In this document: piece by piece, positions 13,401 through 49,325 of the stretch
How the letters are laid out: every line of letters begins with the position of its first letter
Numbering within the stretch: position 1 is the stretch's first letter
Source: a virus
Virus record (IMG/VR): IMGVR_UViG_3300004369_000005
Coordinates: 1 to 64,000 of that record
Reading direction: 5' to 3' (one strand)
DNA: 64,000 nucleotides
Notes under the pieces: model-generated
What the model was told of the DNA's origin: nothing
The model's database searches: none
The model's input: the letters and a program-made list of their open reading frames with translations, nothing else
Translations under genes and position numbers: made by a program

Positions 13401-16400
13401 TATCTAGGAATGCCTGATCTGCAATGACATCTCTATTTCTTGCAATTAGATATGCAGCATCTAGATATGTTCCATTAGTGTTATTAGCAACAACATCAAT
13501 GAAGAGATATGTTAGAGTGTCAATAGCAGCTCTTACATCATTGCAAGCATATCCGCTATTGTTTACTGTTCCATCCGCATTCAATAATGCGGTGCCTGTG
13601 ATTACTGTTGGATCAAAGTATCTTGGGACAGAAGAATATTCAGGAACATAAACTGGATCTGATGGAGTACCATACTCGGTTCTCCAGTTTCTCATTGCAT
13701 AAGTTGCTAGAGTTCTAGCATACTCCATTGCACGAACTGTCTGAATAATCTCATTTTCTACATAATCAATCTTTGCACCGACAACGTACTTTTGACCTGC
13801 CTCAATAACATTATGGTTAGTTCCGAATTCAAGGTCTCTGCAGAGAGCATTGAGGAAGTGTACGATGTCTTGCTTACATTGTTCGTCACTGACAGGAATA
13901 TTAAAACTTGGATATACTTTAGTTCCATTAGAACATTCAACTTCCAGACCAGCAATCTTAACAATCTCATCTTCAGAAATCGTTGCAATTGGATTTACTG
14001 TGCTAACAGTGGCAACTCCAGTTACAGCAGTGTCATAGTTGAAATCGTTTACAGTGTAATCAACACCATTATACGTTACCGTTCCACCAGTAATATATGT
14101 GTGCTCGAACCTAGATGGACCGAGGAAGATATCAAAGGTAGAACCACCAACTTGGATTGCATTGGCAATTGATCTCTTAAACGTATGAGCTGATTGTGGT
14201 AGATGCTTAACTGCTCCAGTTGTAGCGCCAGCAAATGTGTGTACTGCTCTAGGCTCATGCTTGATAGCATTAATATTTTCGTCGCCTGGTACAAATGTAT
14301 GAACGGAAGTATCGGATGATGTTCCAACATTAATAGTAAATGTTCCATCCTGTCTCTTCAATCCATTGGTGGTTGCGGAAACAAAACTGTGTGTTGATAG
14401 ATCAGTTGAAGCTCCAACGTTAACGTCAAATGTATTCGATGTTACGTTGCTAATCTTTAACCATCTGCCACTTGCATAGTCATATGATCTTGGATATGTA
14501 TGCTGAGTAGCATTTCCATCTAGATCACATGTAAAAGTAAGACTATTGTCTTCTAGTAAGATGTAATCATTTTGTGTAAATCCATGACTGGTAATACCAA
14601 TCGTAGCTACTCCAGTAGAAGGATTATATGATGCTGATTCTACTGTGTGAGAATTGCTACCAACAGCAGTAATAGTGATAGACTTACCTGCATATGGATC
14701 AATTCCTGGTCTTGGATATGTGTGCTCTGTTGCGTTACCATCTTTAGCACATGTAAAAGTAAACGAATTGTCGTTCAGAACAACACTTCTACCAACACCA
14801 AGACCATGCTGACCGACAGTAACAGTCAAGTCACCTGTGGAAGGATTGTAGGTAGCATCAGTAGGAGTGAAATATTCGTTCTCTCTAGATGCACCAATAT
14901 TAACAGTAATTTCGGTTTCAGTTACTGCAGTAATTTTAGTTGACTTACCTGCATATGGATCGATTCCTGGACGTGGATATGTCTTGACGGAATCATTTCC
15001 GTCCATCGTACAAGTAAAGCTAATGGAGTTATCTGCAAATACAATACCTTCACCAACACTCAGGGTGTGTGATCCAATGTTTAGAGTGATATCCCCTGTT
15101 GATGGATCATAGGTAGCAGCAGAAGGAGTAAATTCTTGGTTAGCTCCAGATGCTCCAACATTAACAGTAAACGTATTTGTTGTTACTGCATCGACATTTA
15201 GAGTTCTGTTGCTAGCATAGTGATGACTTTCTGGTGTTGCATGTTCGGTTTTATTACCGTCCATGGCGCAGGTGAAGATGATAGACTCATCTTGAATTCT
15301 GATTCCATCACCTACTTGCAATCCGTGGTTTGCAACAGTAAATACTGCCTCACCAGTTGCTGGATCATAAGTTGCATCAGTTGGGGTAAATTGCTGTGCT
15401 GGTGTACCACCAATGTTGTATACAGCAAAATACTCTTTCTTAAACTCATCATTAATTCTTCCAACGACTTCATCTGCAATGAAGTCTCTGTTGTTACGGA
15501 TAAACGTAACAGCGTCCTGGAATCTTCTTTCAACAGGAGTTGCTAGTGGGAAAGTGTTTGGAGAGTTTAGTAGTGTTAGAGTAACAGACTTTGTGTATGA
15601 TCTAACAGTTGCGTTTTGTCCTGGATCGAAGTGTGAGTATGACTCATCACCTGGATCTACTGCATATGCAGGGAATTTTTTGGGAATGACAAATCTTCTG
15701 GAACGACCGTCAGCGTCCTCAAGAATCTTGTAAATTCTTTGATAACCGTTTAGAGGAGAACAATCGATTGGGAATGTTGGTAGACCTTCAATGAAAATTT
15801 CTTGTCCTTCTCTGAAGTCATGGATATTAGTTCTACCGACTAGTTCATTAGTATAAAGTACAATACCACCAAGATCCTCAGCACTACCAAACTGTGATTC
15901 TTGGAAACCACCCGTAGCAATACTTGGATCACCTTGTAGGGTAAAATCAATACGCTGAATAGGTAGTGGGGAGCTGTAGTTATCATCAACAGAAACAACC
16001 TCACCTTCTGCTCTAATTGATTTTAGAGCAGTGGTATCAATTTGGTTCTGTATGATTGTTGCTTCTGAAATATCAATCGATGCTGCTACTTCACTATCCC
16101 ACTCTGGAGCTCCTAAAATAGGTACAACAGTGATGTCCCAATATGTTGGCGAATTATCATCGTTGATTCCAGCAACTTCATAGAAACCTTCCGTGAAGTT
16201 TGCATCATTAGTATCATCTAAGTGAACGTAAGTTCCTGGTGGAATAATTGTATCAGGATCATCTGTTGTACGGAAGATATTTTTACCTGCCGTTTGTGTA
16301 ATATTGAGGGTAATTGGATTACCTTTTGTACCAGTAATAATATATCTGTAACTCTCACCCTCTAGGAAAGAACCACTAGTCAATGTAACGTCGAGAGTAC

Positions 16401-31702: not shown

Positions 31703-33553
31703 TCAGAACTCGATAACGAGTTTGATGTCTTCAATCTGGTCTGGAGCACGAGTGATTAGACGACGGTTCTCAACGTAGATTACATCACCTGAGTTGTTTT
31801 CAATTTCAGGAGTAGCAAGACCTGCGTTGAATGTCTTACCTAGAAGTTCGGTTCCGTTAGCAAGTGTGGTCTCAACATCACCTGAAGCAGCAGATGTGTC
31901 ACCAGTGATTGCGTTAGCAGAAGATTCGAATGCTCTTACAACACCAGAATCTAGGTGAGCTTCTACAGTTTGGATGTACTTGAGAACACCTTCACCAGCG
32001 ATGTCATTACCGTTGCCATCTTTGTCAAGAGTCCAAGAAACAACTGTACCGTATGCAGTACCACCAGTTACAGTCTGCTGAATTCTTTCGTCAACGATGT
32101 AGTCAGCATCTGCACCAGTGATCTTGACTGCCTTGAGACCTGAAGCGGTGTCTGCAGTTAGGAATGCAGTTGAACCCCACTGGAGAGGATCCTTAAGAAT
32201 ACCGATTCTACGGAAGTCGTTGTCAACTGGGAAGTCGCCTGAACCCTCATCATAGGTGAGACGGATGTTAGTCATCACGCGCTTACCATTGAGTTCTACT
32301 TCGTGGTCTGAACCATGACCGCCTTGAGGAGGCATAACTGCCTTAAGTGAACCGTAAGCAGTGTTAGGTACGGTAGCAGTAGAAGATAGACCAGAGTTGG
32401 TGAATACGAAACCTTGCTTTAGGAGAATATTACCGTAGGTGTAACCTGAACCACGAGCAAACATTTCAGCAGAGGTGATTGCACCAGCAGCACTAGTGGT
32501 GAATCTTACGATAGCACCTGAACCATCACCCTGAACTTCTGTGTAGAGAGTGGCGCTTGCAGGTAGATCATCGCCAGCATCTTCGATTAGAACTACATCG
32601 AGAGCACCATCAACTGCGAGAGCTTCTACAGCAACTCTAGAAGGATTGGTTGTTTCAACGATTGGCATGAAGTCCGATGAAAGGAACTTGATAACATCAT
32701 CGGTGGGGATGGTATACATGTGCTTCCAGAGGTAGTTGCCACTTGGAGCACTCCAGATACCAGTTGAACCATCGTAGTTTGCACCATCAGTAGTTCTGGG
32801 TTGCTCTGCCTCTAGAACATCAACACCAGTTGGGCTTGAAGGAGTCTCACCATTATAGAGACACTTGAATACTTCATAGTCAGAGTTCATTACATAGAAC
32901 TTAGCGTCTGCAATCGAAGTAACAGATGATGAAGATACACCAGAGATACCTGTCTGACCGTTGCCAGATGCAGAGTAGTTAGGCTTCCACATGTCAAATC
33001 TTGGGTTGACAGAGGTGCTCCAGTTGTAGCGACGAATAACTGTTCTTGCGTGCTGAGAATCAATTTTCTTAGCAGCAATAATCTCATCATAGAGAGAAAG
33101 CTTCTCAGTCTGGTTATCCAGAGGAGCAGGAGGATTGTCCTCAGTGCCGTAACGATAAACGCCAGTTTGTGCTCCTACGCTAGTGGAGATAGTTGAACCA
33201 CCGTCTGCTGTTTCTCTGATGTCGGAACCTAAGGCAGGTGCAGAGTTAACTCCGCTTGAACCAAAAATGTCGGTAAGAAGAAGAGCGTTATCATAGATAC
33301 CTGCAATAGTGGCACGGAATGCAGTACCAGTGTAATCACCAGCGGAAGTTCCTACAAAAATTTCTCTGCCAACCGTAAAGTTGTTCTGGAGCTTCGAGTG
33401 AATCTCTAAGTATGCATACCATCCTTGTGGGCGTCCCACAAAGAAATACATTCGAGAGCCGTCGCCAGCGGGATCGGCATCACTTTCTTGAAGTGATTCT
33501 AGGAATTGACTCGCATTAAAAATGCGAAACTTATCAGAGATAATAGCAGTCAT
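31703..33553 (-). CDS. gp8: baseplate wedge subunit (T4 gp8)
   Basis: MTAIISDKFRIFNA, FYVMNSDYEVFKCLYN, YLWKHMYTIP, IYVENRRLITRAPDQIEDIKLVIEF. Confidence 0.92.
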   Translation of the reverse strand: MTAIISDKFRIFNASQFLESLQESDADPAGDGSRMYFFVGRPQGWYAYLEIHSKLQNNFTVGREIFVGTSAGDYTGTAFRATIAGIYDNALLLTDIFGSSGVNSAPALGSDIRETADGGSTISTSVGAQTGVYRYGTEDNPPAPLDNQTEKLSLYDEIIAAKKIDSQHARTVIRRYNWSTSVNPRFDMWKPNYSASGNGQTGISGVSSSSVTSIADAKFYVMNSDYEVFKCLYNGETPSSPTGVDVLEAEQPRTTDGANYDGSTGIWSAPSGNYLWKHMYTIPTDDVIKFLSSDFMPIVETTNPSRVAVEALAVDGALDVVLIEDAGDDLPASATLYTEVQGDGSGAIVRFTTSAAGAITSAEMFARGSGYTYGNILLKQGFVFTNSGLSSTATVPNTAYGSLKAVMPPQGGHGSDHEVELNGKRVMTNIRLTYDEGSGDFPVDNDFRRIGILKDPLQWGSTAFLTADTASGLKAVKITGADADYIVDERIQQTVTGGTAYGTVVSWTLDKDGNGNDIAGEGVLKYIQTVEAHLDSGVVRAFESSANAITGDTSAASGDVETTLANGTELLGKTFNAGLATPEIENNSGDVIYVENRRLITRAPDQIEDIKLVIEF

Positions 33554-33612: not shown

Positions 33613-36600
33613 TTAGTCAACCTCAATATTAATCATTTCATCACCTGCGGAGATGGTTGTTGGTCCACTGTAGACGGTACATCCATCGAAGGTTGTTCCA
33701 GTCTTACTCGTATATTGGATAATGGATCCTCCGCTTGTAAAGAGGTAACCAGAATCCAGGAAGTATTTAGTAGGTTCAGCACCTGGGTCTCCACTGTTAT
33801 TAACTGAAATTGTTCCGCTGATGAGACCATTCTGTGAAGTAATTGCAATTGCATTTTGAATGGATGGATTAGCAAGATTGAAGTAGTCACCGTTGATTGT
33901 GTAACTGGAGTTCGGACGATCTTCAAAGTCCGCAAGAGTCATTTGTGGGAACAATGCGGAGAATCTTTCAATAGAAACTCCAGATGCATTCGCGGAACCA
34001 TCGTCATATCCAACATAATTCCAGTTTCTTAGGGTAGGTCCAGCATTACCTGTGGTATAGTTACCTAGGTAATCTCCAGAACCAGAAGAACCAAATAGTT
34101 GGTTGATAACATCAATCAGATCTCCGTCTCTTGTTAGGACATCATGATCGTCAGTAATATCTACAAAACCGCCATCTCTGGTTGGAACTGGGTCGCTGAG
34201 GAAGATCGATTCGACGAATCCATCAACAACACCAGATCCAGGATGGATTCTGAGTAGTTCTGTTGGACCATTGTGTACGACTTCATGATGAATGCTAATA
34301 TGATGTAACTCTTCAACATGATTGACTGTTGTTCTGACAACAGAATCAGCGAAGATTCCAGTCTCTTGTGGGCGGGTTGTGATTGCGTTTGCTTCGATAG
34401 AAGACGCGGAAACAGAAGAGATTGTTGGAGCAAGACTGGAGCGAATCTGCTTATGGGAGACCTTCCAATCTGCCAATCTAACTGCAGATTTCTTGATATC
34501 AACTTTGATTTCAATGTTGTCGCGGGTGAGAGATTCGAACCTTGCTTCAGAGTTGATTGCACCCGCACCTGCGGCACCACCAGACTCAGTAACGATATTT
34601 GCCTGTACCGTAGCAATAACGGTAGGTCTAACCTGAGACTTGATGATAGTCTTGGCAATCTTCCAGTCAACGATCTGTACGGCATCTTTCTTGATGTCCG
34701 CCTTGATTTCAGTTGCACCAACACTGAGGGAGTTAAAGGAAGCAATCGAATCCTTAGGAGCAATGCTGAGAGCATCACTAATAATAGAGATATGTGAAGT
34801 AGATGTAACAGTAGGAGCGACCTGTGCCTTGACGATTGTCTGTGTGACTTTCCAATCAACCAGATTGATATCCGCTTTCTGGATCTCAAGTCTGTCTGGT
34901 TGCTTAATAGCATACATCTCACCAAAGGAAGCAATAGAATCCTTAGGAGCAATACTAAGTGCCTCACTGATAATATCAATTCTATTGGTGGAGGTGATAG
35001 AAGGTCCAACCTGAGACTTGATAATAGTCTTAGCAATCTTCCAGTCAACGATCTGTACGGCATCTTTCTTGATGTCTCTCTTAACAAGAGTTTCTTTACG
35101 GGCAAGAGTTTCAATAGCAGAGAACGAATCTCTAGGTGCAATACTGGTTGCGATTGCCTCAGTAACTGATGTACTGGTGAAGACAATAGAAGGTCTGAGA
35201 GTTGCCTTGACAATAGTCTGCTCGACTCTCCAATCATATAGATTGATATTTGCCTTCTGAATCTCAAGTCTATCAGGTTGTGTATAATGTGTAAGACTGT
35301 CGATAGAGACAAATGTCTCAGAAGGACGTGTTGTGATTGCTTCAGTGGAAGCGAGGAATGTTGTATTGGTGGAGACAATGGAAGGTGTAACTTGCTCCTT
35401 AATGATTGTTTGAGTAACTTTCCAGTCAACAATCTGAATTGCTTCCTTCTTGATATCTCTCTTAACAAGAGTTTCTTTCCAGGCAAGAGTTTCGATAGCA
35501 GAGAACGAATCTCTAGGAGCAATACTGATTGCATCACTGATGATGCTAATCTGTGAAGTGGAAGATACAGTAGGTCTGACAGTTGCCTTAGCATAGATCT
35601 GAGTGATCTTAACGTCAGGAACAACTGCTTCCTTCTTAATATCTTGCTCGATAAGAGTCTCTTTCCATGCAAGACTATCGAGTTTCTCAAATGAAGCGTA
35701 TGGTTTGACAGTGACAGATTCGGAGAATACGTTGAGTAGAGTAACCTCTGTCGTGATTGCCTTGTGAGCGGCAGCTGTGACAACTGTCTGAGTTACTACA
35801 GGGGCAGGGAAGAAGATGTTCTGTCTCTGCAGTTCACCGCGAATAATTGTTCTGTCAAAATCAAGCGTTGAGAATAGTCCGATGACTTTTCTAGCGCCAA
35901 CGTCAGTCTTACGCTGAGTCTTAGCAGTGACATAAGATAGAGAGTCAATTGCTTGGACTGATTGAATCTGAGCGGTGATAACTCTTTCATTGAGAGTTGC
36001 TTTCTGCTCGACACTGACTGGTCTTGGTTCAAACCACTTAGCAAATTCGTTGTCTTCGTTGAACTTAACTTCAGAATCAACTTGCTTAATCTTAACAGCT
36101 GCAACAGACTGAATAGCAGCAACGCCACCAGAGACAACTTCAACCTTCTTAGGAATCTGCTTGAGGAATGTTCCTGCCAACCATGGTTTAGCTGTGGTGC
36201 CATCTACTCCTCTCTGTAGATTTAAGAATCTATCAGTGAGTTTACGGTAGTATCTGACGACCTCATCGCCAATCATTAGGTAACCGTTCGTCTCAAACTT
36301 GCTAGTATCAGCAATGTATGCAACAGTATCTGTTGCTGTCATATCTAGATCTAGGTAAGCACCAGTCTCATAGTAGTTGAAGTTTCCTAGAGAATCGTTG
36401 AAGATTCTCTTTTGTGACTGCGTGGTAAGTTTTCTTGATGTCTGAGTGATAGAAACAGACTTGACAAAGGGAGTTCTGGTAGAAGCAATAGAAACATACT
36501 CGTTCTGACCCAAGAACATATCAATCAGATATGTCTGAACCTTCTTATTCTTACTATCAGTAAACTTGGTAAGAGGTTGTACTACTCTACAATCCAAGTC

Positions 36601-39600
36601 TTTCTTTAGATTATCATCACCTTCTACCTGAATAATTGCCGTGAGTGACTTGAAAACTGCTCTTGGAGATTCTGCGATAATAGCAGAAGTAGAGAATGCC
36701 AGTGGAACTGGTAGACTTGCAATAGAAATTTCGGATGCAATAGTCTTGATATTTGCATCAAGTTTTGGTTGAATACCAATAGTAACAAGAGATACAGCAA
36801 TATCTCTTTCAACTAAGATGTCATATCCTCTAGCAACTACTGTCTTAGGAGCAGAAGTATATCCACTACCAGGGTTGATTAGATCAACACTGAGGATGTG
36901 ACCGCCAAGAGTTAGAACCTCTGCCTGTGCTCCACCACCATTGCCATCTTCAGGAATAAACTGAATGATTGGTGGTGTATAGTATTGATATGCTGTAGGT
37001 TGTGTATTAGGATTATAGTTACGCTGGTTCCACTCTAGTCTTGCAATTCTGCCAGTGAGAACTTGGTTTCCATTTTCGTCCTCTACCGTCTCCATAATAG
37101 GAACAACACTGAGACCTGTTCCTTCGGTAGATCCGTTGTATGCTTCGACACCAACAATACCAAAAATGGAGTTATTAGATGGAATAGAATTGCTGTAATC
37201 CTTAGAGGTTACAATGCTAGGAAGTGCAGAGATCTTTCTGAAAGCAGACTCGCCATCGACTCTAATAGTATCACCACTGTTTAGTGGTAAGAAAGTCTTT
37301 CTGTAAGATCTACCTAGTTTAGTAGCATTCCACTTACCATTTCTATCCGCAAGACGGATTCTTCCTGTCTCGTCTCTAGTAATAGTTCTGTCAATTTGAT
37401 TAATGATAACGTTTGTGGTAATTGAAGCATCAGCAATAGATGCTAGTCGTACAACATATCTGTCTCCAAATGCTTCACTTGTTACGAGTTCGTGGTATTG
37501 AGAAACAATAAATCTTGCTTTAATAGTTACAATATTACCAACTTCACTGAAGATATATGGATCAATAATATCTCCTATAGGAGCATCAAAAGATGAACCA
37601 TTGGATTTAGATCCAATCGCTCTATATCCAGCATATCTCTTGTCTCGCATCCAAGAGTCATATGATACATTATCATCATTCCTAGCAAGTCTATTAACTG
37701 CTTGAACTGCAAAAGCTGTTGATTTATCGAGAGTGAATGTAATATCACCTTGGATGTAATAAGTGTTTGGTGAGTAGTCGTAGATATTGAGAATCTGACC
37801 GACATCCCTACCATAAAGGAGTCTCATATCAACATCATTCTGCTCTGTGATTGGAACATTAAAGTAGATGTTAGGACCAGAGATAGTGTAACTATAACCT
37901 TCTCTCTGTAAGACACCATCGACAAAAACGAACAAGAATTCTTTCTCGTCGATCTTCTGGACTGAGCGATCCTCCATATCCAGGATTAGGAATGGACCAG
38001 ATCTTACACCATCTACCAAGTTGTAATCAATTGTAAGTCTCTTATAGTTACCAACTCCAAGACCTACAACTCTTTCAACTGCAGTTGGTTCGCCAATACT
38101 CTTAGCACCAAAATCTTGATCCCAGATAGGAGCAACATCAAATACAATCTTGTTAGGAATTACAGTTCTATCAATATAATATGCATCGCCACCTGGGTAA
38201 GTTGCGTTATACTTAGGTTGCTGTAATACGGCATTGATGGTGATAAAGAAGTCCTCATCTTCCTCAGAGTTGACTTCTGTGCCATCTTCCCAATACAGTT
38301 CGAACTCTTTGGTTTCTCCGTCAACATAATCAGGGAGCGACCTTGAAACTGATTCTTCATTGAGAATGTCAGTAACATTAGCAAATAGAGAATCTACTGA
38401 AGAAATGACATCAGCACATTCACTATCTGGAAGCAGAGGATCTTCGATGATGTTATAATTTGTGTATACTCTCAGTGAAGTCCAGTTACCTTCGCTGTTT
38501 AGATTCTGTGGTGTCGCATCGACATATCCAGTTCCAAAAGCAAGGATGTCCTTAACAATTTGAATGTAAGAACTCAGTGCTGACGCCACATTAGCACATG
38601 CTGGGGTGAGAGAATCAATAGCAACGTCTGGATCTGTAACAGGAGCAATGTTGGTATAAGTTCCTGCACCCAGACTATTTCTCATTGCTAGTGTCATCTT
38701 CTCGACTAGCAAATCCCACGCAGCAATAGCTGCGGCAGTCTCTTCAACACTTCTATTAATAGATGTTAAAACTTCTCCATAAGGATATCCTGCATTGGTG
38801 TAATATAGTCTTCCAAATTCTACAACCTGCTCGGTGCCACCAAACTTAAGGTGATAAACAATTGCGTCGATGAGATATCCTAGATCTCTAGCACATTTTT
38901 CGACTGTTGTTTGGAGAGTGTAGTTATTGTAGATAGTAGCACTAACTTCTTCCTGCAAGTATGCTTTGTTTGCAGCAATTAGATTTGCAGCATCATAGAA
39001 AGTACCAGTATTAATACCACTGAAGTAGAATGTAGCAGTATCAGATCCAGAGAATGATGGAGGAACACTGAAGGTATCTCCCTCATCAACAGTAAATGTA
39101 TCGCCTGGTTCTACCGCTGCTGTGCTAGTTGGGCTAACAGCATTTCCATCAGTAATGCCATCAAAGGTTGTAGTTCCCGCAGGAGCTCCACCTCCTCCAA
39201 ATCCAGAGTTAGAGAGTGCTGCTCTAGTCAGTGTAATTTGAGTCTCACTATCAATAGAAGCGATTCTAGTGCCTTCTGGGAAAGAACCACCAGAACTGAT
39301 AAGCATACCAACAGCAACTTTGTTGGTGTCTGCCATCGTCAGAACTCTGGATCCTTGAATAAAGTTAACATTATTAATTACAATGTCCCAGTTCCTAATT
39401 GCCAGTTTAGAAAGATTGGTAGCATATCTAATAATATCGAGAGAAGATTCTTTATTGTCAGTAATATAATCGTAAGTATTATCTTCGTTAAAATACGATA
39501 GATAATCAACAGTCTTTACATTACCTCCAAACCTTAAATCATGCTCGTATGCCTTGAGGATACTTCTCAGATCTGACTCATAACTAGATCCTTTGGTACT

Positions 39601-42600
39601 CCAATCTAGTGTTGGGTAGATCTCTTTACCGTAACCAACAGATTCCGAGACAATAAAGTCAAGATTTCTTTCGATCTGATTAGCAGAATCTAACCATCTT
39701 CCGTTACGCTGGAAAATGTTTCTGATTTTTCTTAGATACCTGTTATTTGATGCAGTATCTTTGAATGCAAAATATCTGCCATAGAATTGCATTCCTTTGT
39801 ATGATGTTACATCACCAAGTCTAGATCCAGTCAGTTTTGTGCTATTACCAAGAGGTGCTTGCGAGAATACAATATCACTTCCATCAATTGTATATGCTAC
39901 TCCTGGTTCCTGTAAGATTCCATCTAAAGTAACAAAGATATTATTTACTTTTGCAGGAACAAAAGGATTATCAAAAGAATCTCTTAGTTGGAACCTAGTT
40001 GTACCAACGGTTTTGACGTTTGCTCCAGTATAAGGGGTGTCATTGATGTCAACACCATCGAATGAGTTCTTTGCATACCATGGCTTACCATCGGCAATAA
40101 CATCATCATAGAATCCAGGAGTTGGGTTGTATACTCTAATAGTATATGCTCTGAATTCATTGAAATTAAATTCTGAGGATGCAATAGAACCAGGACCTCT
40201 TCTGATTCTGTTATTTTCTACTTTTTGAATAGACTGAGTGATAACTCTATGTTTGATATCACTAGTAATAGTATTAACTTCTGGATTCCAAAGTTGTATA
40301 ATAGAAGCCTTGCCAGATCTAGGCATCTTAGCAGGCATTCTTGTATTAGCATCAGTCTCAATATCAACTTGACCGAACAGTTTGAAACCAGCGGGGTGTG
40401 TTGTTGACTTAATTAAGTCTCTCCACTGATCGATTGGAGTTCTAGACTTGACAACATAGGAATAATCCTGATAGAAGAAACTATCAGTTATTCTCTGTGA
40501 TCTGTCACTAACTTTACCTCTAGCAGAAGTATAAAATCCTGCATTGTCGTAAGATGATGTGATATTCTCAGTTAGTGTACTAAAATAGACTGCTTTCACC
40601 GCAGCTCTATTAGTTGGATTGCTAACACTAACAATAGGAAAATTATTTCTTACAATTCCCTGTAGTTGATTGAGTTTTAGTAAATTTGTACCAACTTTAA
40701 ACTCACCAACTCGTGCTCGGAAAACTTCTCTTCCTTCTGCATTCGTTTGTGTTACAATCTCTCCTTTTTGGAAGTTACCAATCGGTTCTGTAGGAGATGA
40801 TCTCTTCAGTGCAATAGTAAACTGAGATGTAAAACTAGATGCTACTGTTTTGTCTAAATGGAAGGCACCACCATTGCGAGTAATCTTAATGCTCTGAGGA
40901 ACACCAATAGTATTACTATCAACATACAACTCGGCATTAGATTCAATAATCTCTACTGTTGGTTTGTATGTGTATCCTTTTCCTGCATTCTCTACAGCAA
41001 TAATAGAAATCTTACCATTAGTTACACTTGGTTTGAATCTAGCACCCTGTCCGTCTCCGTCAGTAATTACAACAACTGGATTTGTGTAATTTGATCCACC
41101 TTCTGTTACGGTTATACCAGTAATAACTTGTACTTTTTCATCAAACTCTACTTCAGCAGTTGCTTTGTATGTTGGAGTGATGTCTACACCAGTAATTACA
41201 GGAACTTTCTTATAGTTAAGACCAAGATTAGTTACCTTAATAGTATTGATTTCGCCAATAGAGAAAGCACCTTTTGATGTGTACGTAATAACTCCCGATC
41301 CATCCCACAGAGGTTTGAAAGGAACATTGTATACAATTCTTGTAGGTGTTACATAAATTACAGTCTTCTCGCCCTGTAGAGGATCTGTAATAAGTTCTAG
41401 ATATGCATCATCTGACGTTACAACACCATTCTTGTCAAAATAGTAGAATGTTGTAAAATCAGTTCCTACTTTAGTATCATACTGGTTCTCAGCAATCCTA
41501 GGACCAAAACCAAATTTAACTTCCGTAAACGCTCCTGTATTTCCAGGAAGAATAGTAGATGCAAGTTTTTCTTCTGTAATAAGATTGTATGCTCTACTTG
41601 GACTTAAGTCAAAATAAGTTCCAGTTAGAGATGAGTGTGAAGTATCAAACTTGTAGCGATAAAATTCCTGAATCTGAATATTTGGATTGGGGGTGAATGA
41701 AATGTTATCTTCAGAAATTTCAAACTTGAAGTTAGGAGATTCGACACTAGAAACAGTTACAAGTCTTGCTGGTGTACTACCATCAAAGAACGTGCTGCTA
41801 TTTTGAATTGAAGTAGCAGTATTTCTTTCAATACCATAATTGTAAACCAGGATTACTGATTGAGTGCTTCTATCATAAGTTAATACTTTTCCTGATGTTG
41901 ATAATCCACCAACTTGGAAGTTTTCTGGGAAGTTATATTGTGCTTTATATAAAGTTACTATTTGACCGTCATAATGATTCGTATCTACAGAACCTTCAAT
42001 GCCACGATTGACAGTAATCTCTGTTGGACTATCAATAGCAGTTACTTCCAGAATCTCGGATCCAATTTTAATCAGATCACCAATTGCGAGACCAGTAGTG
42101 CTCTTTAGTACAAGCTTGTTCTTTCCTTCTGCAAAACCAACGTGATCGACGTAGATGGAAAGTCTGGCAGTGCTTCTAGAAGCAGATGATCTGAAAAGAG
42201 ATTCATCATCGACAGAAAGATAATCACCTTTTCTATATCCAGTTCCTTTATTGGTGATGTCAACAGTAGCGACAGTAGCAGAAACTGTTGCAATAATTTC
42301 TAAACCTGTACTAGTTACTAATCCAGTCTCATCATCAAACACCTTAATGTAGTCTGGAAGGTCATCATTAGTGATAATAAATGATCCTCCAATATAATTG
42401 TATCCAGGTGTTTTTACATAAACTTTATTGCCTACAATTTGACCGTTATTAATTGTAAAAGATGCAACTAACCCATCACCGTCACCGCCAGAAATTACAA
42501 CATTATTGTAAACACCATCACGGTATCCAGAGTGAGTTCCTTGGACCTGTAAATCTGATACAACGTTGTTTTTGACAATGATAGTTGCAGTTGCACCAGT

Positions 42601-45600
42601 TCCAGATCCACCAGTTAGTGCTACATCAGTATACGTAGCAGGAGCATAATCTGCTCCACCGTTTAGAATTTGGAATGCTCCAATACCAGTATCGGAAATT
42701 TCTGATTCATATTCTGGTGTTTTTAGAACTACATTTTGATATAGTCTCTTTCTAACATAATAGTCCTTTGTCTTGATAGAATCATCTGGTCTAATATCAA
42801 CCGTGATTTTATCATCAATACCAAGACCATGTGGACTTGAAGTCTCAATCAACGCAACACTCTGATTAACCTCAAATGGTTCTAAGTTATCGCTAAGAGA
42901 AGTAAGAACTACTGGTTTAGATCCAGAAGTGTTAAAGAAGTCAGAAGACTGTAAGAAGTAGTCGCCACCAACTTCTTCTGCAACACCATTACCAGTTGGT
43001 TCATTTGCATTAGATGTAAATTCTTGTCCTACTTGGAACTGTAATCCAGCACCAATTTGATCCCAATTCGTATCACCAAGTTCTACGATTCTGTATACTT
43101 TGTTTGGTAGAATTGAAGTTGCTGTAATTCTGCCTTGGTTAAGAGGAACCCAGTCACCCTCAGTTACTTTGATTTCTACTGTATTCTGACTGCTAGTTCC
43201 ATTTAGAATTTCGCCTTTTGCTACAGCAGGGTTAATACCATCAGTCAAACTGAGGATTGCTCCTTTAGTAAAAGAACTCTTCTGATCGAGTAGAATAAAG
43301 AAGGTTTTGATGTCAGCTGAGAATGTTCCAGTGTTGTCAAATGTACCAATGACATTCTTAAGAACAATTTGATTGTCATTTCTGACTTCACCTACAATAA
43401 CACCAGATGCATTAGAAGATGGTTGTCTTAACGTATCATCTTCAAATAAGTAAGCATTTTGAATTGTAGTTAATTTAACTACTTTATTTTCATAGCTGTC
43501 AATATACTCTACAGGTTTTCCCTTAACAGACTCAACTAGTGCTTCTGCTTGAGATCCATCTGTACCTCTATTATCAAAATATAGTTTTGAATTGACAGAG
43601 AATACATCTGCAGATCTTTCTACAGTGACTCTATCAACTGTGCCTGCTTTTACGCTACCAATCTCTGCAATAACACCTTCGCCATTTCCAGGCATACCCA
43701 ATTCATTTAATCTTCTAGATTTCTTGGGAATGTCATTTTGGTTAATATTTGAATTGTAGTTACTATCTACTGGCAGTGAATAAAAGTTTTGTCCTAGAAT
43801 GTATGGGAATTGTGGTACTTGATTGGCATTAATAGTAATGAAATAAGCATAAACTCCTTCTGGGAAATCAGGAGTAACACAAAATCGTCCATTGTTTTCA
43901 TCTAGCGAACCATTTTTATGCTTATAGGTATAGTCATTTGTAAATGTACCTAAAGGATATTGATTGATTCCTGGTCCTCCACGTCTGGTGGCGTTAAGAA
44001 TATAACTAGTTGTCATACGGGCAATGCCCGAATTATGGTCTAATGGGTCTTGGAAACCATAGGGACCATAGATTGGATTGCCATCATAAGCAAAACCAAT
44101 AATTGGTGAGTGTCTTAGAGTTCCAGTTTCTTGGTTATTGGCAGTAATATTGTCATTAAGGGCATATCTAAATGCTTTTGGATTTGCAAATTGACCGTAA
44201 CCGTATTCATATGAAATATTGTAATTTTCAAAGACATAACCATTCTGGTCGTCCATTACAGACTTATACTTCTCATATCTGTTGAAATTCCATTCTGTTA
44301 ATTCAACTTGTGCCTTTGCACCTTTTCCAACAGGAAGAATGTCAACTCTTACCGTACTCTGATTATAAAATACACCCTCAGAGTTTTTTTCGAATCCAGT
44401 AATTCTTCCATCAACATCAATAATAGCAGTAAAGTCTGCAAAACGACCTTTGCCATTTCTATCAGTAATTCTTACAATAGGTGGAGAAGAATAAAACTCA
44501 CCAGCATTATCAATAATCAAACTGGTTACTTTATCGCCAGTTACAACTGCGCGAACAATAGCACCTCTACCAGAAGTTACCTCAATCGTTGGTTCAACAG
44601 GAAATACCTTCTGCGAAGTTACAGTGTAACTTTCAACAACTGATCCTGATAGATTTGCTTGTACTAAATCAGGAACACCATCAACTAGAACAAATGGTGG
44701 TTTGGCATATCCTGAACCTTGATCTACAACAGATACAGATTCTAAATTTCCATATCTAATACTTTCTTTGTCTTTGTATCCATATAGACGAACACCATTA
44801 AGGAGAAGTCCAACTTCTGACTTGGGAGTAGCATACTTTTCAGTAGTCTTAATTGCGTTTTTTCTAAGAATACGAAGAAGTTTTTGATCTTTAATTGGTT
44901 GGTTATCTAGAATACTTTCCTTAAAGATTTCATATGATGGAAAGCTAGAAGATGTGATATAATAATATTGTTCGTCTGCAAAAATAGCAGAAACATCAGT
45001 TGCAACTGGAGACAGTTGTGACTCAATGGTTGGTTTAGTTGGAATCTTGACAGGAAGATTATTATTCAGGATCCATCTATAAATGTTAGATCCAGTCTGA
45101 GTGATCTTATTATCGGCAGTTTGGAAACCAGGAATAGAGATCTGAACCTTATCATTTGGATATGAATAAGGTTGAGCGTCGGTAATCTTGAAATCGTAGA
45201 CTACACCTAAGGTCAGAAGTTCTACATCAGCACCTTTGATAATAACTGGTTTGTATACAGATGTACCTACCTCATGGGTATAAGTAACATCACCTCTTTT
45301 CTCGATAGTAAATTGAGTTACATTTTTGTCATTGAAGGAGATAATTTCTTCTCCAATTAGAATTTTACCTTTTTCCTTCCATCCAACGGTAGAAAATACA
45401 TTAACTCTTTTTCCAATACCTGTTGTATTAGAAAGAGTCTTAGTGAGACTAGTTTTTGTGGAAATAGCAAACTCACCAGTTACAGTCTCTGGTGCAAGGA
45501 CCAGATTGACAATTGCTTCTCCATCTGCAGTAATATCGCCAATTACGTTATCTACAGTAGCGGAGACATATCCATACTCTTCTGTCTCTTCTTGTACTAC

Positions 45601-46380
45601 TACTTTACCAATTAGATCGTTAACGTTGCCACTAACAACCTTTACTTTCAAAGCATAGATATTCGTCCAATCAGACTCAGAAGACTTAAGGGTAAAATCT
45701 GTTGGTTTGTATACTTCTGGTTTTTCCCTGGCATCTTTAGATATGATAGTATTAAAGATGAACTTGATAGAACTATCAGTACCTTTTGCCTTATAGAACT
45801 TATCAATGTTCTTGATAAGAGTTCTTTTATCAACTTCACCTTTTAGATACTTTTCTGGGAAAGAACCTAAGTATTGAGATTCAAAATTCTTGACAAATGC
45901 ATACAGGAAAAGGTTACTAATATTGTAAACCTTTACACCATAGTTATGACTTGCTGCATTTGTGCTTGTAAAAGTAGTAGACTCATACAAGTCACCTAAT
46001 GATGTATTGCCACTTACTCCTCTATGGCAATTTTTAAATTCAGTTTCTGTTCTTTTTTCATAGAAAATAATCTCATCATTAATTCTGATGTAACCATTCT
46101 TCTCTGGGAATGAAGTTGCATCATCAACAACGATGATTGTTTCAGTAGCATTAACTGTTACTGATAGTTCTGTGTACTGCTTTAGAAGACGTTTCTCATA
46201 ATAATCAATATCAGCATACTTTTGGATATTGTTAATAATATCCAAGGTGCCGCCTTGCACTTCCTGTGCTTCATAATACTTCTCTACAAACTTACTAAAC
46301 AGTTCGTATTCTGAAGAAATGAATTCAGGAAGCTGCGACTCAATTAGAGTTGAAATTCTCTTAGTCTTTACAGCAGGCAT
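33613..46380 (-). CDS. gp7: baseplate wedge initiator (T4 gp7-like), giant 4255-aa form
   Basis: ISTLIESQLPEFI N-terminus, FYKAKGT, HSPIIGFAYDGNPIYGPYG, DSFFYQDYSYVVKS..THPAGFKLFG; lies between gp6 and gp8. Confidence 0.88.
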   Translation of the reverse strand: MPAVKTKRISTLIESQLPEFISSEYELFSKFVEKYYEAQEVQGGTLDIINNIQKYADIDYYEKRLLKQYTELSVTVNATETIIVVDDATSFPEKNGYIRINDEIIFYEKRTETEFKNCHRGVSGNTSLGDLYESTTFTSTNAASHNYGVKVYNISNLFLYAFVKNFESQYLGSFPEKYLKGEVDKRTLIKNIDKFYKAKGTDSSIKFIFNTIISKDAREKPEVYKPTDFTLKSSESDWTNIYALKVKVVSGNVNDLIGKVVVQEETEEYGYVSATVDNVIGDITADGEAIVNLVLAPETVTGEFAISTKTSLTKTLSNTTGIGKRVNVFSTVGWKEKGKILIGEEIISFNDKNVTQFTIEKRGDVTYTHEVGTSVYKPVIIKGADVELLTLGVVYDFKITDAQPYSYPNDKVQISIPGFQTADNKITQTGSNIYRWILNNNLPVKIPTKPTIESQLSPVATDVSAIFADEQYYYITSSSFPSYEIFKESILDNQPIKDQKLLRILRKNAIKTTEKYATPKSEVGLLLNGVRLYGYKDKESIRYGNLESVSVVDQGSGYAKPPFVLVDGVPDLVQANLSGSVVESYTVTSQKVFPVEPTIEVTSGRGAIVRAVVTGDKVTSLIIDNAGEFYSSPPIVRITDRNGKGRFADFTAIIDVDGRITGFEKNSEGVFYNQSTVRVDILPVGKGAKAQVELTEWNFNRYEKYKSVMDDQNGYVFENYNISYEYGYGQFANPKAFRYALNDNITANNQETGTLRHSPIIGFAYDGNPIYGPYGFQDPLDHNSGIARMTTSYILNATRRGGPGINQYPLGTFTNDYTYKHKNGSLDENNGRFCVTPDFPEGVYAYFITINANQVPQFPYILGQNFYSLPVDSNYNSNINQNDIPKKSRRLNELGMPGNGEGVIAEIGSVKAGTVDRVTVERSADVFSVNSKLYFDNRGTDGSQAEALVESVKGKPVEYIDSYENKVVKLTTIQNAYLFEDDTLRQPSSNASGVIVGEVRNDNQIVLKNVIGTFDNTGTFSADIKTFFILLDQKSSFTKGAILSLTDGINPAVAKGEILNGTSSQNTVEIKVTEGDWVPLNQGRITATSILPNKVYRIVELGDTNWDQIGAGLQFQVGQEFTSNANEPTGNGVAEEVGGDYFLQSSDFFNTSGSKPVVLTSLSDNLEPFEVNQSVALIETSSPHGLGIDDKITVDIRPDDSIKTKDYYVRKRLYQNVVLKTPEYESEISDTGIGAFQILNGGADYAPATYTDVALTGGSGTGATATIIVKNNVVSDLQVQGTHSGYRDGVYNNVVISGGDGDGLVASFTINNGQIVGNKVYVKTPGYNYIGGSFIITNDDLPDYIKVFDDETGLVTSTGLEIIATVSATVATVDITNKGTGYRKGDYLSVDDESLFRSSASRSTARLSIYVDHVGFAEGKNKLVLKSTTGLAIGDLIKIGSEILEVTAIDSPTEITVNRGIEGSVDTNHYDGQIVTLYKAQYNFPENFQVGGLSTSGKVLTYDRSTQSVILVYNYGIERNTATSIQNSSTFFDGSTPARLVTVSSVESPNFKFEISEDNISFTPNPNIQIQEFYRYKFDTSHSSLTGTYFDLSPSRAYNLITEEKLASTILPGNTGAFTEVKFGFGPRIAENQYDTKVGTDFTTFYYFDKNGVVTSDDAYLELITDPLQGEKTVIYVTPTRIVYNVPFKPLWDGSGVITYTSKGAFSIGEINTIKVTNLGLNYKKVPVITGVDITPTYKATAEVEFDEKVQVITGITVTEGGSNYTNPVVVITDGDGQGARFKPSVTNGKISIIAVENAGKGYTYKPTVEIIESNAELYVDSNTIGVPQSIKITRNGGAFHLDKTVASSFTSQFTIALKRSSPTEPIGNFQKGEIVTQTNAEGREVFRARVGEFKVGTNLLKLNQLQGIVRNNFPIVSVSNPTNRAAVKAVYFSTLTENITSSYDNAGFYTSARGKVSDRSQRITDSFFYQDYSYVVKSRTPIDQWRDLIKSTTHPAGFKLFGQVDIETDANTRMPAKMPRSGKASIIQLWNPEVNTITSDIKHRVITQSIQKVENNRIRRGPGSIASSEFNFNEFRAYTIRVYNPTPGFYDDVIADGKPWYAKNSFDGVDINDTPYTGANVKTVGTTRFQLRDSFDNPFVPAKVNNIFVTLDGILQEPGVAYTIDGSDIVFSQAPLGNSTKLTGSRLGDVTSYKGMQFYGRYFAFKDTASNNRYLRKIRNIFQRNGRWLDSANQIERNLDFIVSESVGYGKEIYPTLDWSTKGSSYESDLRSILKAYEHDLRFGGNVKTVDYLSYFNEDNTYDYITDNKESSLDIIRYATNLSKLAIRNWDIVINNVNFIQGSRVLTMADTNKVAVGMLISSGGSFPEGTRIASIDSETQITLTRAALSNSGFGGGGAPAGTTTFDGITDGNAVSPTSTAAVEPGDTFTVDEGDTFSVPPSFSGSDTATFYFSGINTGTFYDAANLIAANKAYLQEEVSATIYNNYTLQTTVEKCARDLGYLIDAIVYHLKFGGTEQVVEFGRLYYTNAGYPYGEVLTSINRSVEETAAAIAAWDLLVEKMTLAMRNSLGAGTYTNIAPVTDPDVAIDSLTPACANVASALSSYIQIVKDILAFGTGYVDATPQNLNSEGNWTSLRVYTNYNIIEDPLLPDSECADVISSVDSLFANVTDILNEESVSRSLPDYVDGETKEFELYWEDGTEVNSEEDEDFFITINAVLQQPKYNATYPGGDAYYIDRTVIPNKIVFDVAPIWDQDFGAKSIGEPTAVERVVGLGVGNYKRLTIDYNLVDGVRSGPFLILDMEDRSVQKIDEKEFLFVFVDGVLQREGYSYTISGPNIYFNVPITEQNDVDMRLLYGRDVGQILNIYDYSPNTYYIQGDITFTLDKSTAFAVQAVNRLARNDDNVSYDSWMRDKRYAGYRAIGSKSNGSSFDAPIGDIIDPYIFSEVGNIVTIKARFIVSQYHELVTSEAFGDRYVVRLASIADASITTNVIINQIDRTITRDETGRIRLADRNGKWNATKLGRSYRKTFLPLNSGDTIRVDGESAFRKISALPSIVTSKDYSNSIPSNNSIFGIVGVEAYNGSTEGTGLSVVPIMETVEDENGNQVLTGRIARLEWNQRNYNPNTQPTAYQYYTPPIIQFIPEDGNGGGAQAEVLTLGGHILSVDLINPGSGYTSAPKTVVARGYDILVERDIAVSLVTIGIQPKLDANIKTIASEISIASLPVPLAFSTSAIIAESPRAVFKSLTAIIQVEGDDNLKKDLDCRVVQPLTKFTDSKNKKVQTYLIDMFLGQNEYVSIASTRTPFVKSVSITQTSRKLTTQSQKRIFNDSLGNFNYYETGAYLDLDMTATDTVAYIADTSKFETNGYLMIGDEVVRYYRKLTDRFLNLQRGVDGTTAKPWLAGTFLKQIPKKVEVVSGGVAAIQSVAAVKIKQVDSEVKFNEDNEFAKWFEPRPVSVEQKATLNERVITAQIQSVQAIDSLSYVTAKTQRKTDVGARKVIGLFSTLDFDRTIIRGELQRQNIFFPAPVVTQTVVTAAAHKAITTEVTLLNVFSESVTVKPYASFEKLDSLAWKETLIEQDIKKEAVVPDVKITQIYAKATVRPTVSSTSQISIISDAISIAPRDSFSAIETLAWKETLVKRDIKKEAIQIVDWKVTQTIIKEQVTPSIVSTNTTFLASTEAITTRPSETFVSIDSLTHYTQPDRLEIQKANINLYDWRVEQTIVKATLRPSIVFTSTSVTEAIATSIAPRDSFSAIETLARKETLVKRDIKKDAVQIVDWKIAKTIIKSQVGPSITSTNRIDIISEALSIAPKDSIASFGEMYAIKQPDRLEIQKADINLVDWKVTQTIVKAQVAPTVTSTSHISIISDALSIAPKDSIASFNSLSVGATEIKADIKKDAVQIVDWKIAKTIIKSQVRPTVIATVQANIVTESGGAAGAGAINSEARFESLTRDNIEIKVDIKKSAVRLADWKVSHKQIRSSLAPTISSVSASSIEANAITTRPQETGIFADSVVRTTVNHVEELHHISIHHEVVHNGPTELLRIHPGSGVVDGFVESIFLSDPVPTRDGGFVDITDDHDVLTRDGDLIDVINQLFGSSGSGDYLGNYTTGNAGPTLRNWNYVGYDDGSANASGVSIERFSALFPQMTLADFEDRPNSSYTINGDYFNLANPSIQNAIAITSQNGLISGTISVNNSGDPGAEPTKYFLDSGYLFTSGGSIIQYTSKTGTTFDGCTVYSGPTTISAGDEMINIEVD
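34360..35710 (-). repeat. ~7 tandem 63-aa (189-nt) mosaic repeats near the gp7 C-terminus
   Basis: SIAP.DS...DIKK.A.QIVDWK...I.K..V.P units; 44-bp exact DNA match at 34655-34698 and 35033-35076 (offset 378 = 2x189). Confidence 0.9.
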
Positions 46381-46384
46381 TTAC

Positions 46385-48181
46385 TTACTCTTTGTATGCA
46401 GTGAATGAGGAATTGGCAACGTCAACATCCAAGTAAACCTCACGGAGTGCCTGAATATCATTAGAAAGTGGTTTTACACGAACAGAGATTCTATTATCAA
46501 AGAAACTACCTTTGATGATAGTCAAATTATAAAGTTTGAGTTCACCTTTATCATAATCAATATCACCGACTTCCTTGTCTAGAAGGACTTTTTCACCTGT
46601 TGCGGTATCTAGTCTATATAGGACAATTTTGCCATCCCTATCTTCAAGATAGACATCAAACAAAGGATATTCTGTGACTCTAAATCCAGTAGTAGAAAGG
46701 GTTGCGCCATCACAATCTTTATCAAAAGGATTCTGGTAACAGATTTCGTAATAGAACGTAGAATTTAACTGTGGATAGAAATCCTTCCTCATTGTGACTG
46801 TTGTCAAATTAGAGTTAATTGCTCGGTCTGCATCATCAATTACACCAGTAAATTTACTGTGTCTAAACTTACCGTTAAACTTCTCTGTATTTGATGTATT
46901 GATATAATCCTGCACTGTTCCAATAACTTTGTCGCGAATTTGTGCTGGTGATTGATCTGTTTTATCACCACTGTAATAAATCTTACTTTGTATCTCGACA
47001 TATAGTACAGATGGGTCTACAATCACTGGAGTAACAGAAGCAACCGAATACTTCTTCAACTCATCAATAATTTGCTTTTTAGTAACACTTGTTACATAAG
47101 TAGCATCCTTTGGTTTTAGTACAATGAATACTTTTCCATACTGAGGAGGATCTGCATCTTCTCCGCCGTAAATAATGATGTCACTAGTAGCAGGATAAAT
47201 TTTTCTAATAATAGATGAGTAATCATTTGATGTTACTGCTCTATCCTGTGATCCATATGCCTTAGGAGCATTGAACTTAATCTTGCTAATAGACTCCAGT
47301 CCTTCGCCTCCAGAAGCAGCAATCGTTGAATCAACAGTTACCTCGAAAGCGTTAGGAGAGACCCCTTGTGGGTTCTCCAGGACGCCAGAGAAGACGAATG
47401 TGCGTACACCATTGCTCTCTGGTCCAGAAGTGGTTAGATAGGAAACTTCTATTCTTGATCCATTTTCAAGTTTCTTACCTAGTACACCATCGCCAAAAAC
47501 TAATTCGTATCTTTCATCCTCGATCTCGTCTAGAAAGAATACTTTAGAATCTTGATCTACATCTAAAATATTGTCTGCTACTAGATATGGTTCGCTAAAC
47601 GATCCACCTGTAGGAAATACGTTTACTCTTACTGTATTAGTATCAATGTTCTGGTTGTCAAGAATAAATTTCTGTGACTTAAGTGATGTATTAACAGTGT
47701 AAGTATTTTTTAAAAGAGTTCCTTCATACACAGGAACTTCTGTAAAAATTGCTTTTTGATTCGATACTTGTGCCTTTACATCATTAAGAACAACGTATTG
47801 ATATGTCGTGTTGTCGTATGATGCAACAAATCCTGTTCCTTTCTTAAGTAGGAGTTCAGTATCAGTTGTTGGGTTATTGTAATCGACTGTAAAACTAATA
47901 TAAGCAACAGGAGATGTGATGCTCTTAGGTCTGTAACCTAATTGCTTTGCCAGAGCAACCACATTGTCCCTGAGGGTGGCAGAATCAATGAATAGTTCAT
48001 TGACTACCATGTTGGTGTTAAATGCCGTATAATACGTGTTATAGGCAAGTGTGTCGATTAGCGTTGATAACGCAGATCCTTCGAAGTCATAATCAGTAAA
48101 GTCCGACTGCGCTCTAAGGTATTCCTTCAGAGCAGACTTGATATCTTCAAAGTCTAAATTAGCAACTTGAGTATATGGCAT
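46385..48181 (-). CDS. gp6: baseplate wedge subunit (T4 gp6)
   Basis: LDFEDIK, FTDYDFEGS, LAYNTYY, FGDGVLGKKL, QDRAVT..DY motifs. Confidence 0.95.
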   Translation of the reverse strand: MPYTQVANLDFEDIKSALKEYLRAQSDFTDYDFEGSALSTLIDTLAYNTYYTAFNTNMVVNELFIDSATLRDNVVALAKQLGYRPKSITSPVAYISFTVDYNNPTTDTELLLKKGTGFVASYDNTTYQYVVLNDVKAQVSNQKAIFTEVPVYEGTLLKNTYTVNTSLKSQKFILDNQNIDTNTVRVNVFPTGGSFSEPYLVADNILDVDQDSKVFFLDEIEDERYELVFGDGVLGKKLENGSRIEVSYLTTSGPESNGVRTFVFSGVLENPQGVSPNAFEVTVDSTIAASGGEGLESISKIKFNAPKAYGSQDRAVTSNDYSSIIRKIYPATSDIIIYGGEDADPPQYGKVFIVLKPKDATYVTSVTKKQIIDELKKYSVASVTPVIVDPSVLYVEIQSKIYYSGDKTDQSPAQIRDKVIGTVQDYINTSNTEKFNGKFRHSKFTGVIDDADRAINSNLTTVTMRKDFYPQLNSTFYYEICYQNPFDKDCDGATLSTTGFRVTEYPLFDVYLEDRDGKIVLYRLDTATGEKVLLDKEVGDIDYDKGELKLYNLTIIKGSFFDNRISVRVKPLSNDIQALREVYLDVDVANSSFTAYKE

Positions 48182-48821: not shown

Positions 48822-49325
48822 TTAACTCCAGTGATTGTTTGGTCTTTCCCACCAAAAATGTAAATCTTTGATAGTATCATCATAATAAAGTGAAACTAAG
48901 TCACTCTTATATTTACTATGGATATTTTCACATAATGATAAAGTGTAGTAATTCTTGTCTACAAACTTTTCCATTACCTTAGTAATCCAAGTATAATTGC
49001 CACCTCTGATTACACCTGCCTCACATAAAACAAAATTATCCCAGTCTAGAACCCAGTCAGCAAAATTAATTTCAAAATCAAGTTTATACTTATTTACATT
49101 TTCGTCTGGAAATGGCACATTGACTGCTTCAATATGAAAAATCTCTCGATCCATAGATAATGAATGCGAGAGATGCTGAGTTACAATACCAGAGTAATCA
49201 GGAGACACGCACAAGAAACAAGTCTTTGAGGGATGAATATTCCAATCAGACATCTTGATCTTATACGACATCTCCTGAATGAGTGCCATCTCTTTGTCTT
49301 GTGAGATAAACAAAAGTTCTTTCAT
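48822..49325 (-). CDS. phosphoribosyltransferase-fold protein (putative)
   Basis: FVLCEAGVIRGGNY resembles a PRPP-binding loop; C-terminal HFWWE. Confidence 0.55.
   Translation of the reverse strand: MKELLFISQDKEMALIQEMSYKIKMSDWNIHPSKTCFLCVSPDYSGIVTQHLSHSLSMDREIFHIEAVNVPFPDENVNKYKLDFEINFADWVLDWDNFVLCEAGVIRGGNYTWITKVMEKFVDKNYYTLSLCENIHSKYKSDLVSLYYDDTIKDLHFWWERPNNHWS

Follow-up and report, generated by a model that had tools for sequence, protein, structure and literature searches.

The first 64,000 nucleotides of the IMG/VR virus record IMGVR_UViG_3300004369_000005 (the window, that is, the whole stretch of DNA analysed) encode a giant virion protein of 4255 amino acids (aa) in the gp7 position of a baseplate wedge gene cluster. 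Two domains of this protein, one nested in the other, are very probably distant homologues of phycobiliproteins (PBPs), which are known as the antenna proteins of cyanobacteria, red algae and cryptophytes. Both are members of a large family of modules that was seen here in cyanophages only. It is quite possible, if short of probable, that these modules become chromophorylated in the infected cell and hold covalently bound bilin, as PBPs do; this proposal draws on the residues that the family conserves and on the genes that neighbour it. The window is part of a 92-kb viral contig with an estimated completeness of 48%.

The original prediction had described PBP-like domains in the region 38360-39690, and translation of the minus strand reproduced all of the peptides that it quoted exactly. 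PF00502 is the sole Pfam family matched in this region. A 503-aa stretch scores 22.0 bits with PF00502 (E 1.7e-4), just below the cut-off of 22.2 bits, and the whole 4255-aa protein scores 15.3 bits. The family matches 40 of 42 orthologues, the best with an E-value of 1.9e-6, and a paralogous copy in another protein of the same genome reaches 26 bits, above the cut-off. PF00502 is far less sensitive than the module family's own profile, as it missed the five copies in S-ShM2, so it was not used to decide on presence or absence. Matches to PDB sequences are confined to PBPs (20 of 20 with phmmer and 32 of 32 with an orthologue profile), and 51 of these 52 are C-phycocyanin alpha subunits. In the alignments the phage K-C-A-R-D-L-G-Y sits on the K-C-A-R-D-I-G-Y around Cys84 of C-phycocyanin alpha. 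For profile-profile comparisons, which do not depend on database thresholds, cyanobacterial genomes supplied a reference set of cpcA and cpcB genes together with another 33 PBPs. Using hhalign, the inner domain matches CpcA with 93.9% probability (E 1.6e-7), and an alignment of 36 phage copies matches 53 mixed PBPs with 95.4% probability (E 1.7e-8) over 67 columns.

The predicted structures lead to the same family. The AlphaFold model of aa 2201-2703 has a predicted local distance difference test (pLDDT) value of 79 and a predicted TM-score (pTM) of 0.74, and the model of the inner domain alone has a pLDDT of 78.7. Both copies are predicted to have a globin-like fold, as had been proposed, and PBPs are the top matches. 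In VIA-align the whole stretch matches phycoerythrin beta (5aqd_M) with Z 15.8 over 151 aa at 2.9 A, and the inner domain matches phycoerythrin beta with Z 14.5 over 147 of its 168 aa at 3.0 A. Allophycocyanin and the PBP domain of ApcE follow with Z 13-14.7 (13.0 each for the inner domain alone). The top 50 Foldseek matches of the inner domain are all PBPs, with TM-scores of 0.5-0.65 and modest E-values of 4e-3 and above. A look-up in the ESM Atlas gave no usable match. An unrelated helical bundle could share the short K-C-A-R-D-x-G-Y with phycocyanin alpha by chance, and the marginal single-sequence scores (E 0.0025 for phmmer against the PDB, PF00502 just under its cut-off), the Foldseek E-values above 1e-3 and the fact that middling Z-scores are common for helical folds would agree with that. 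However, the profile-profile E-values, the same-genome copy above the Pfam cut-off, a VIA score above those of all non-PBP globins and the fit of both halves of the split outer domain to one profile in register make chance resemblance very improbable.

The phage domains share several features with PBP subunits (PF00502: CpcA/B, CpeA/B, ApcA/B). They have a predicted globin-type fold made up of helices A, B, E, F, G and H, a K-C-x-R-D where helix E begins, aligned on Cys82/84, Arg and Asp, and a G-G turn past helix E. A Cys also leads the last helix, at a place in the predicted fold that would correspond to beta Cys153/155. By sequence the closest PBP is CpcA (19-23 bits), whereas by structure it is phycoerythrin beta (Z 14.5-15.8). 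Identity to PBP subunits is about 15-20%. PBP subunits are free proteins of 160-180 aa, whereas the phage domain is embedded in a 4255-aa virion protein, has a shorter B-E loop, is without the X-Y hairpin in the inner copy and occurs as two copies, the first of which holds the second within its G-H loop.

The claim that one copy is nested in the other is correct because the inner-domain profile and the model alignment show the split outer domain independently. The inner globin and a beta-rich domain are inserted in the outer G-H loop. The inner-domain profile matches the outer domain in two parts, aa 2226-2330 (profile positions 6-118) and aa 2628-2675 (profile positions 118-163), and PBPs align to the model over residues 18 to 474 of the 503-aa stretch, the outer helix H included. 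In the first part of the outer domain the PF00502 stretch lies at aa 2214-2258 and the helices at model residues 28-128; one extra N-terminal helix (model residues 10-24) has a pLDDT of about 40. The beta insertion domain resembles small beta domains of phage virion proteins, with Z 9.2 over 66 aa for 8eci (Arthrobacter phage Bridgette), Z 7.8 for 9n71_B (Mystique tail tube) and Z 6.6 for phi92 gp150.

Sensor globins come next after the PBPs, with Z 11-12 (pXO2-61 11.8, a globin-coupled sensor 11.4), followed by RsbR with 9.9. These matches, and the presence of module proteins at sites of receptor recognition (baseplate, tail fibre and short tail fibre annotations), speak for another ligand-binding or sensor globin, whose ligand would be a small molecule other than a bilin, or else a component of the host surface or antenna, with non-heme sensor globins such as RsbR and pXO2-61, or a receptor-binding domain, as the model. 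Such a role is improbable, as the sequence profiles point to PBPs alone, no globin or sensor-globin Pfam family was matched, and conservation falls on the residues of the bilin site. The N-domain of RsbR, pXO2-61, the photocobilin globin domain and the BBAG proteins (PMC10151467) share the general fold (Z 9.3-11.8) and are examples of globins that serve as ligand-binding or signalling modules, but they give no sequence-level match and are without the C-x-R-D and the helix-H Cys. Heme binding by the module was considered and dropped, since the family alignment has no conserved heme His.

The residues at the positions of the PBP bilin site are largely conserved. The codons of C2496 and C2595 are located as in the original prediction, and C2655 was confirmed in the translation. 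Sequence and profile alignments agree that C2496 has the position of Cys82/84 inside the conserved K-C-x-R-D. The other two cysteines lie in the first turn of the last helix of their domains, the putative helix H, where beta Cys153/155 lies in PBPs. Among 121 homologues with 53-98% identity, C2496 is conserved in 95%, C2595 in 98% and C2655 in 98%, and the cysteines are also kept among paralogues, in line with the original prediction. The outer domain has a Tyr for the Cys at helix E and retains only the Asp of C-x-R-D. Six phage genomes were surveyed for paralogues, which yielded 39 different helix-E and 29 different helix-H segments. Of the 39 helix-E segments, all have the Asp of C-x-R-D, 33 have the Cys and 27 have the Arg. 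All 29 helix-H segments have their Cys, a count that is somewhat biased as profile detection favours segments with the Cys. In the 36-copy family alignment, which has a mean identity of 27%, the Asp is the sole invariant column. The corresponding Asp of PBPs is in contact with the pyrrole nitrogens, and the Arg with a propionate.

The same residues have also been considered without a pigment. A PBP gene may have been captured from the host long ago and reused as a helical building block, spacer or oligomerisation unit, and the Cys, Arg and Asp would then serve in folding and assembly through inter-domain or inter-subunit disulfides, helix capping and salt bridges. A pigment-free structural module of this kind is the main rival to bilin binding and only slightly less likely. 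Its difficulty lies in the cysteines, which are otherwise strongly avoided (7 in the whole 4255-aa protein) and yet are kept precisely at the two PBP attachment positions in copies of about 27% identity. A disulfide as the reason for their conservation is weakened because the outer domain, which is without the helix-E Cys, keeps its helix-H Cys in 98% of orthologues, and a disulfide between helices E and H within a domain cannot explain this. It is further weakened because the region has an odd number of cysteines (three), and because the globin of PBP beta subunits has Cys82 on one face and Cys153 on the opposite one.

If the modules do bind bilin, as we tentatively propose, the chromophores would be supplied by the host or by phage ho1, pebS and pcyA, and attachment would precede virion assembly or accompany it. 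One attachment site may be the helix-H Cys (C2595, C2655), served by a T-type lyase, either phage or host CpeT/CpcT; sites of the helix-H type (beta 153/155) are served by T-type lyases (CpcT/CpeT). The Cys of C-x-R-D (C2496) may be the other site, either with the help of an S-type lyase from the host or autocatalytically, as ApcE does it, and the pyrrole nitrogens and propionates of the bilin would be held by the Asp and Arg. Baseplate and fibres of the virion would then bear chromophores, for which candidate roles are light-gated adsorption, photoprotection and stabilisation of the fold. ApcE provides a cellular parallel. It has a PBP-fold domain inside a very large multidomain protein, interrupted by an insert (the PB-loop), and matches the phage domain with Z 13.0-13.6 (4xxi). 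ApcE attaches its bilin without a lyase, and an embedded PBP domain can thus be chromophorylated. It differs in being a cellular antenna protein, in that its insert is a loop and not whole domains, and in having its attachment Cys elsewhere.

The module family is present in three giant virion proteins of the source phage. Besides the gp7-position protein, a 3479-aa virion protein (7429-17868) has two to three module copies, with profile matches of E 2e-8 and 7e-17 and the motifs Q-C-K-Q-D and K-C-R-R-D. A 5228-aa open reading frame (ORF) that lies beyond the window (G000 75853-91536, minus strand) has about eight more, among them the copy that reaches 26 bits. Upstream of this ORF, at the contig end (91594-92120), there is a small HNH-endonuclease-like ORF where relatives have cpeT. 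A tblastn search with the inner domain against 50,697 phage records found 411 places in 205 records, all of them cyanophage; the records are Synechococcus or Prochlorococcus phages or generic 'Cyanophage', and one is a marine single-cell virus. The matched proteins are annotated as structural, baseplate wedge, tail fibre and short tail fibre proteins. In a representative library of 1.84 billion proteins, 1165 proteins match at E <= 1e-3, mostly of 1-6 kaa, with up to 35 matched stretches in one protein. Methylophilales phage Melnitz-1, which is also a member of the Kyanoviridae and has a heterotroph host, has no module.

The distribution of cpeT bears on whether the modules are substrates of a lyase. 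The role of phage cpeT has been stated as unresolved (PMC3037559). Searches of the source genome for CpeT, bilin reductase (FDBR) and heme oxygenase found none, which agrees with the earlier statement that no bilin genes are in the window; the record is 92 kb and 48% complete, so this result says little. Co-occurrence was examined in 26 isolate cyanomyoviruses, 17 of them classic genomes and 9 taken from an even sample of gp6 matches without regard to the module. Of the 23 phages with the module, 17 have cpeT and 6 do not, and the three phages without the module are all without cpeT, so that cpeT is never found without the module (Fisher one-sided p ~0.03). This test is weak because the module is near-universal, the module-free phages are perhaps one lineage and a quarter of the module-bearing phages are without cpeT. 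The phages with neither PBP-like module nor cpeT are P-SSM2 (NC_006883), S-SM2 (NC_015279) and S-SSM7 (NC_015287).

The gene order around cpeT is more telling than the co-occurrence in 26 genomes. The neighbourhood was surveyed in 57 viral contigs that have a long-form cpeT (43-100% identical) and a full 3-kb downstream flank. In 39 of the 57 contigs there is a same-strand module match within 3 kb downstream of cpeT, no match was found upstream, and in the remaining 18 a same-strand open-ended ORF runs off the flank. On the complete contig G006 the giant gene begins 290 bp past cpeT. S-PM2 and Syn1 have cpeT followed by a 2-oxoglutarate (2OG)-Fe(II) oxygenase gene and then by a giant, module-rich 'short tail fiber protein' gene. 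The co-occurrence of cpeT that the original prediction had suggested checking holds in one direction, as cpeT was seen only in phages with the module, and the gene neighbourhood is conserved. A complex of phage CpeT and the inner domain, with the two sequences taken from one relative genome and each given an alignment, was predicted with a score of 0.00, in a run without controls, which speaks neither for nor against binding.

A 2OG-Fe(II) oxygenase gene has also been noted near the gp7-position gene, where it is found at 49322-49888 (minus strand), just upstream of the gp6/gp7 cluster. Between cpeT and the giant fibre gene the 2OG-Fe(II) oxygenase (T4-GC 104) is located at 165307-165888 in S-PM2 and at 20572-21144 in Syn1. 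The location of such genes could point to an enzyme that modifies module-bearing virion proteins.

Several results weigh against bilin attachment, and a number of these favour the pigment-free structural module. The identification of the helix-H cysteines with beta Cys153/155 rests on fold position and short motif likeness, because the alignments with beta subunits are weak or meaningless. The hhalign match of the inner domain to CpcB alone has a probability of 5.6%, global hhalign against beta subunits gave a meaningless alignment, and at the sequence level neither the likeness to beta subunits nor that to the Cys153/155 helix reaches statistical significance. Global hhalign pairs the last helix with PBP helix H at only 58% probability. 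The X-Y hairpin, which pairs alpha with beta in PBPs, is absent from the inner-domain model, which has no additional helix at its N-terminus and whose structural alignments never start before PBP residue 25. In PBPs the B-E loop lines the bilin pocket; in the inner domain this loop has about 10 residues fewer. Some copies have lost the helix-E Cys or Arg. The modules have been multiplied like building blocks, to judge from the counts in the representative library, and are often nested or split by inserts. The six module-bearing phages without cpeT include S-B43, the nearest isolate to the source phage, and the three phages that are without both may be a single lineage, so that the association of cpeT with the module may go back to one event. 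The presence of bilin reductase genes does not follow that of the module, as P-SSM2 and S-SSM7 have such a gene and no module. In addition, no report of pigmented cyanophage particles was found in the literature searched. The structural module, for its part, leaves the neighbourhood of cpeT unexplained.

Light-dependent adsorption has been reported for some of these phages. P-HM1 and P-HM2 fail to adsorb without light, and dark adsorption is seen with P-SSM2 and the podovirus P-SSP7 (PMC6628666). The adsorption of S-PM2 is light-dependent and independent of host photosynthesis (PMC6628666). In our searches P-HM1, P-HM2 and S-PM2 carry the module and cpeT, and P-SSM2 and P-SSP7 carry neither. 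The adsorption phenotypes therefore fit the pattern of module and cpeT, although five phages are an anecdote. The whole chain, in which bilin is bound to the virion modules, phage cpeT serves virion proteins and not the host antenna, and the pigment acts as the photoreceptor for light-dependent adsorption, is unlikely when taken with all its steps.

Table 1. Positions of the module domains, their cysteines and the surrounding genes in the window.
Feature	Position	Strand	Remarks
Giant virion protein gene, gp7 position, baseplate wedge cluster	33613..46380	minus	single ORF, 4255 aa
Outer PBP-like domain, N-terminal part, helices ~Y/A to G	39388..39744	minus	aa 2213-2331; Tyr2267 at Cys82/84 position, Asp kept
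Beta-rich insertion domain between outer and inner globins	39025..39387	minus	aa 2332-2452; strands at model residues 133-252
Inner PBP-like domain, complete globin fold	38521..39024	minus	aa 2453-2620; K-C-A-R-D (C2496) and helix-H Cys (C2595)
Outer-domain helix H, led by C2655, closing the outer globin past the insertion	38353..38433	minus	aa 2650-2676; model helix 452-473
K-C-A-R-D motif, C2496 codon 38893-38895 (Cys82/84 equivalent)	38884..38898	minus	phmmer, hmmsearch and hhalign alignment to C-phycocyanin alpha
C2595 codon, first turn of inner-domain helix H	38596..38598	minus	position like beta Cys153/155
C2655 codon, first turn of outer-domain helix H	38416..38418	minus	98% conserved
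Further module copy in the 3479-aa virion protein	13483-13917	minus	Q-C-K-Q-D and K-C-R-R-D motifs and helix-H Cys in translation, for this and the split copy together
Split module copy in the 3479-aa virion protein	13132-13479 and helix H 12673-12801	minus	within 12673..13917
YHYH domain (PF14240, E 2e-28)	43813-44295	minus	aa 696-856, N-terminal third of the gp7-position protein
gp6-like baseplate wedge gene, directly upstream of the 4255-aa gene	46385..48181	minus	phrog_219, E 7e-213
Baseplate wedge gene, gp8 position, directly downstream of the 4255-aa gene	31703..33553	minus	phrog_438, E 2e-162

The assignment of the 4255-aa gene to gp7 comes from its place in the wedge cluster, between the gp6-like gene (phrog_219) and the phrog_438 gene. 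The protein has an end-to-end match to phrog_4406 (virion structural protein), and baseplate wedge PHROGs give partial matches. In the Prochlorococcus phage P-HM1 the protein with the orthologous module carries the annotation gp7. T4 gp7 has 1032 aa. The T4 gene likewise lies between the gp6-like and gp8-position wedge genes, but the phage protein described here is about four times longer and has YHYH, PBP-like and repeat regions that are absent from T4 gp7. The nearest isolates are Synechococcus myoviruses, namely S-WAM2 and S-B43 by DNA or protein and, of the named homologues, S-RSM4.

Other features of the gp7-position protein and its relatives have been noted. The YHYH domain is also present in nearly all of the listed homologues. 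Toward the C-terminus (~34620-36215, minus strand; aa ~3390-3920) there are about eight diverged repeats of roughly 70-80 aa each, with the motif W-K-E-T-L-V-K-R-D-I-K-K-[ED]-A followed by V-D-W-K-[VI], and Tandem Repeats Finder found no DNA-level repeat beneath them. The repeat region has probably given rise, as a by-product, to a 540-aa alternative-frame ORF at 34161-35783. In S-B43 (MN018232, ~127300-128500 and 137300-137800) the module-bearing frames are merely 1392 and 2184 aa long and a TAA stop lies inside one match; the giant genes of this phage may be split or mis-sequenced. In S-PM2 (NC_006820, 165928-177267, locus L267) the coding sequence of the 3779-aa 'short tail fiber protein' contains 16 tRNA features that bear its own locus tag, which looks like an annotation or coordinate artefact.

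No paper that describes PBPs as building blocks of virus particles was found in the literature searched. The module family is linked to two puzzles that can be tested. Most T4-like cyanophages carry cpeT without its partners, and S-PM2, P-HM1 and P-HM2 adsorb in a light-dependent manner without host photosynthesis. If the modules bind bilin, the phage bilin genes would gain a phage-encoded substrate and the virions would gain a chromophore, and if the whole light-sensing chain were true this would be the first pigmented, light-sensing virion. If they bind no bilin, the modules nonetheless clearly exemplify how an antenna protein of the host was captured and multiplied as a structural module, in phages that are the ocean's most abundant myoviruses.

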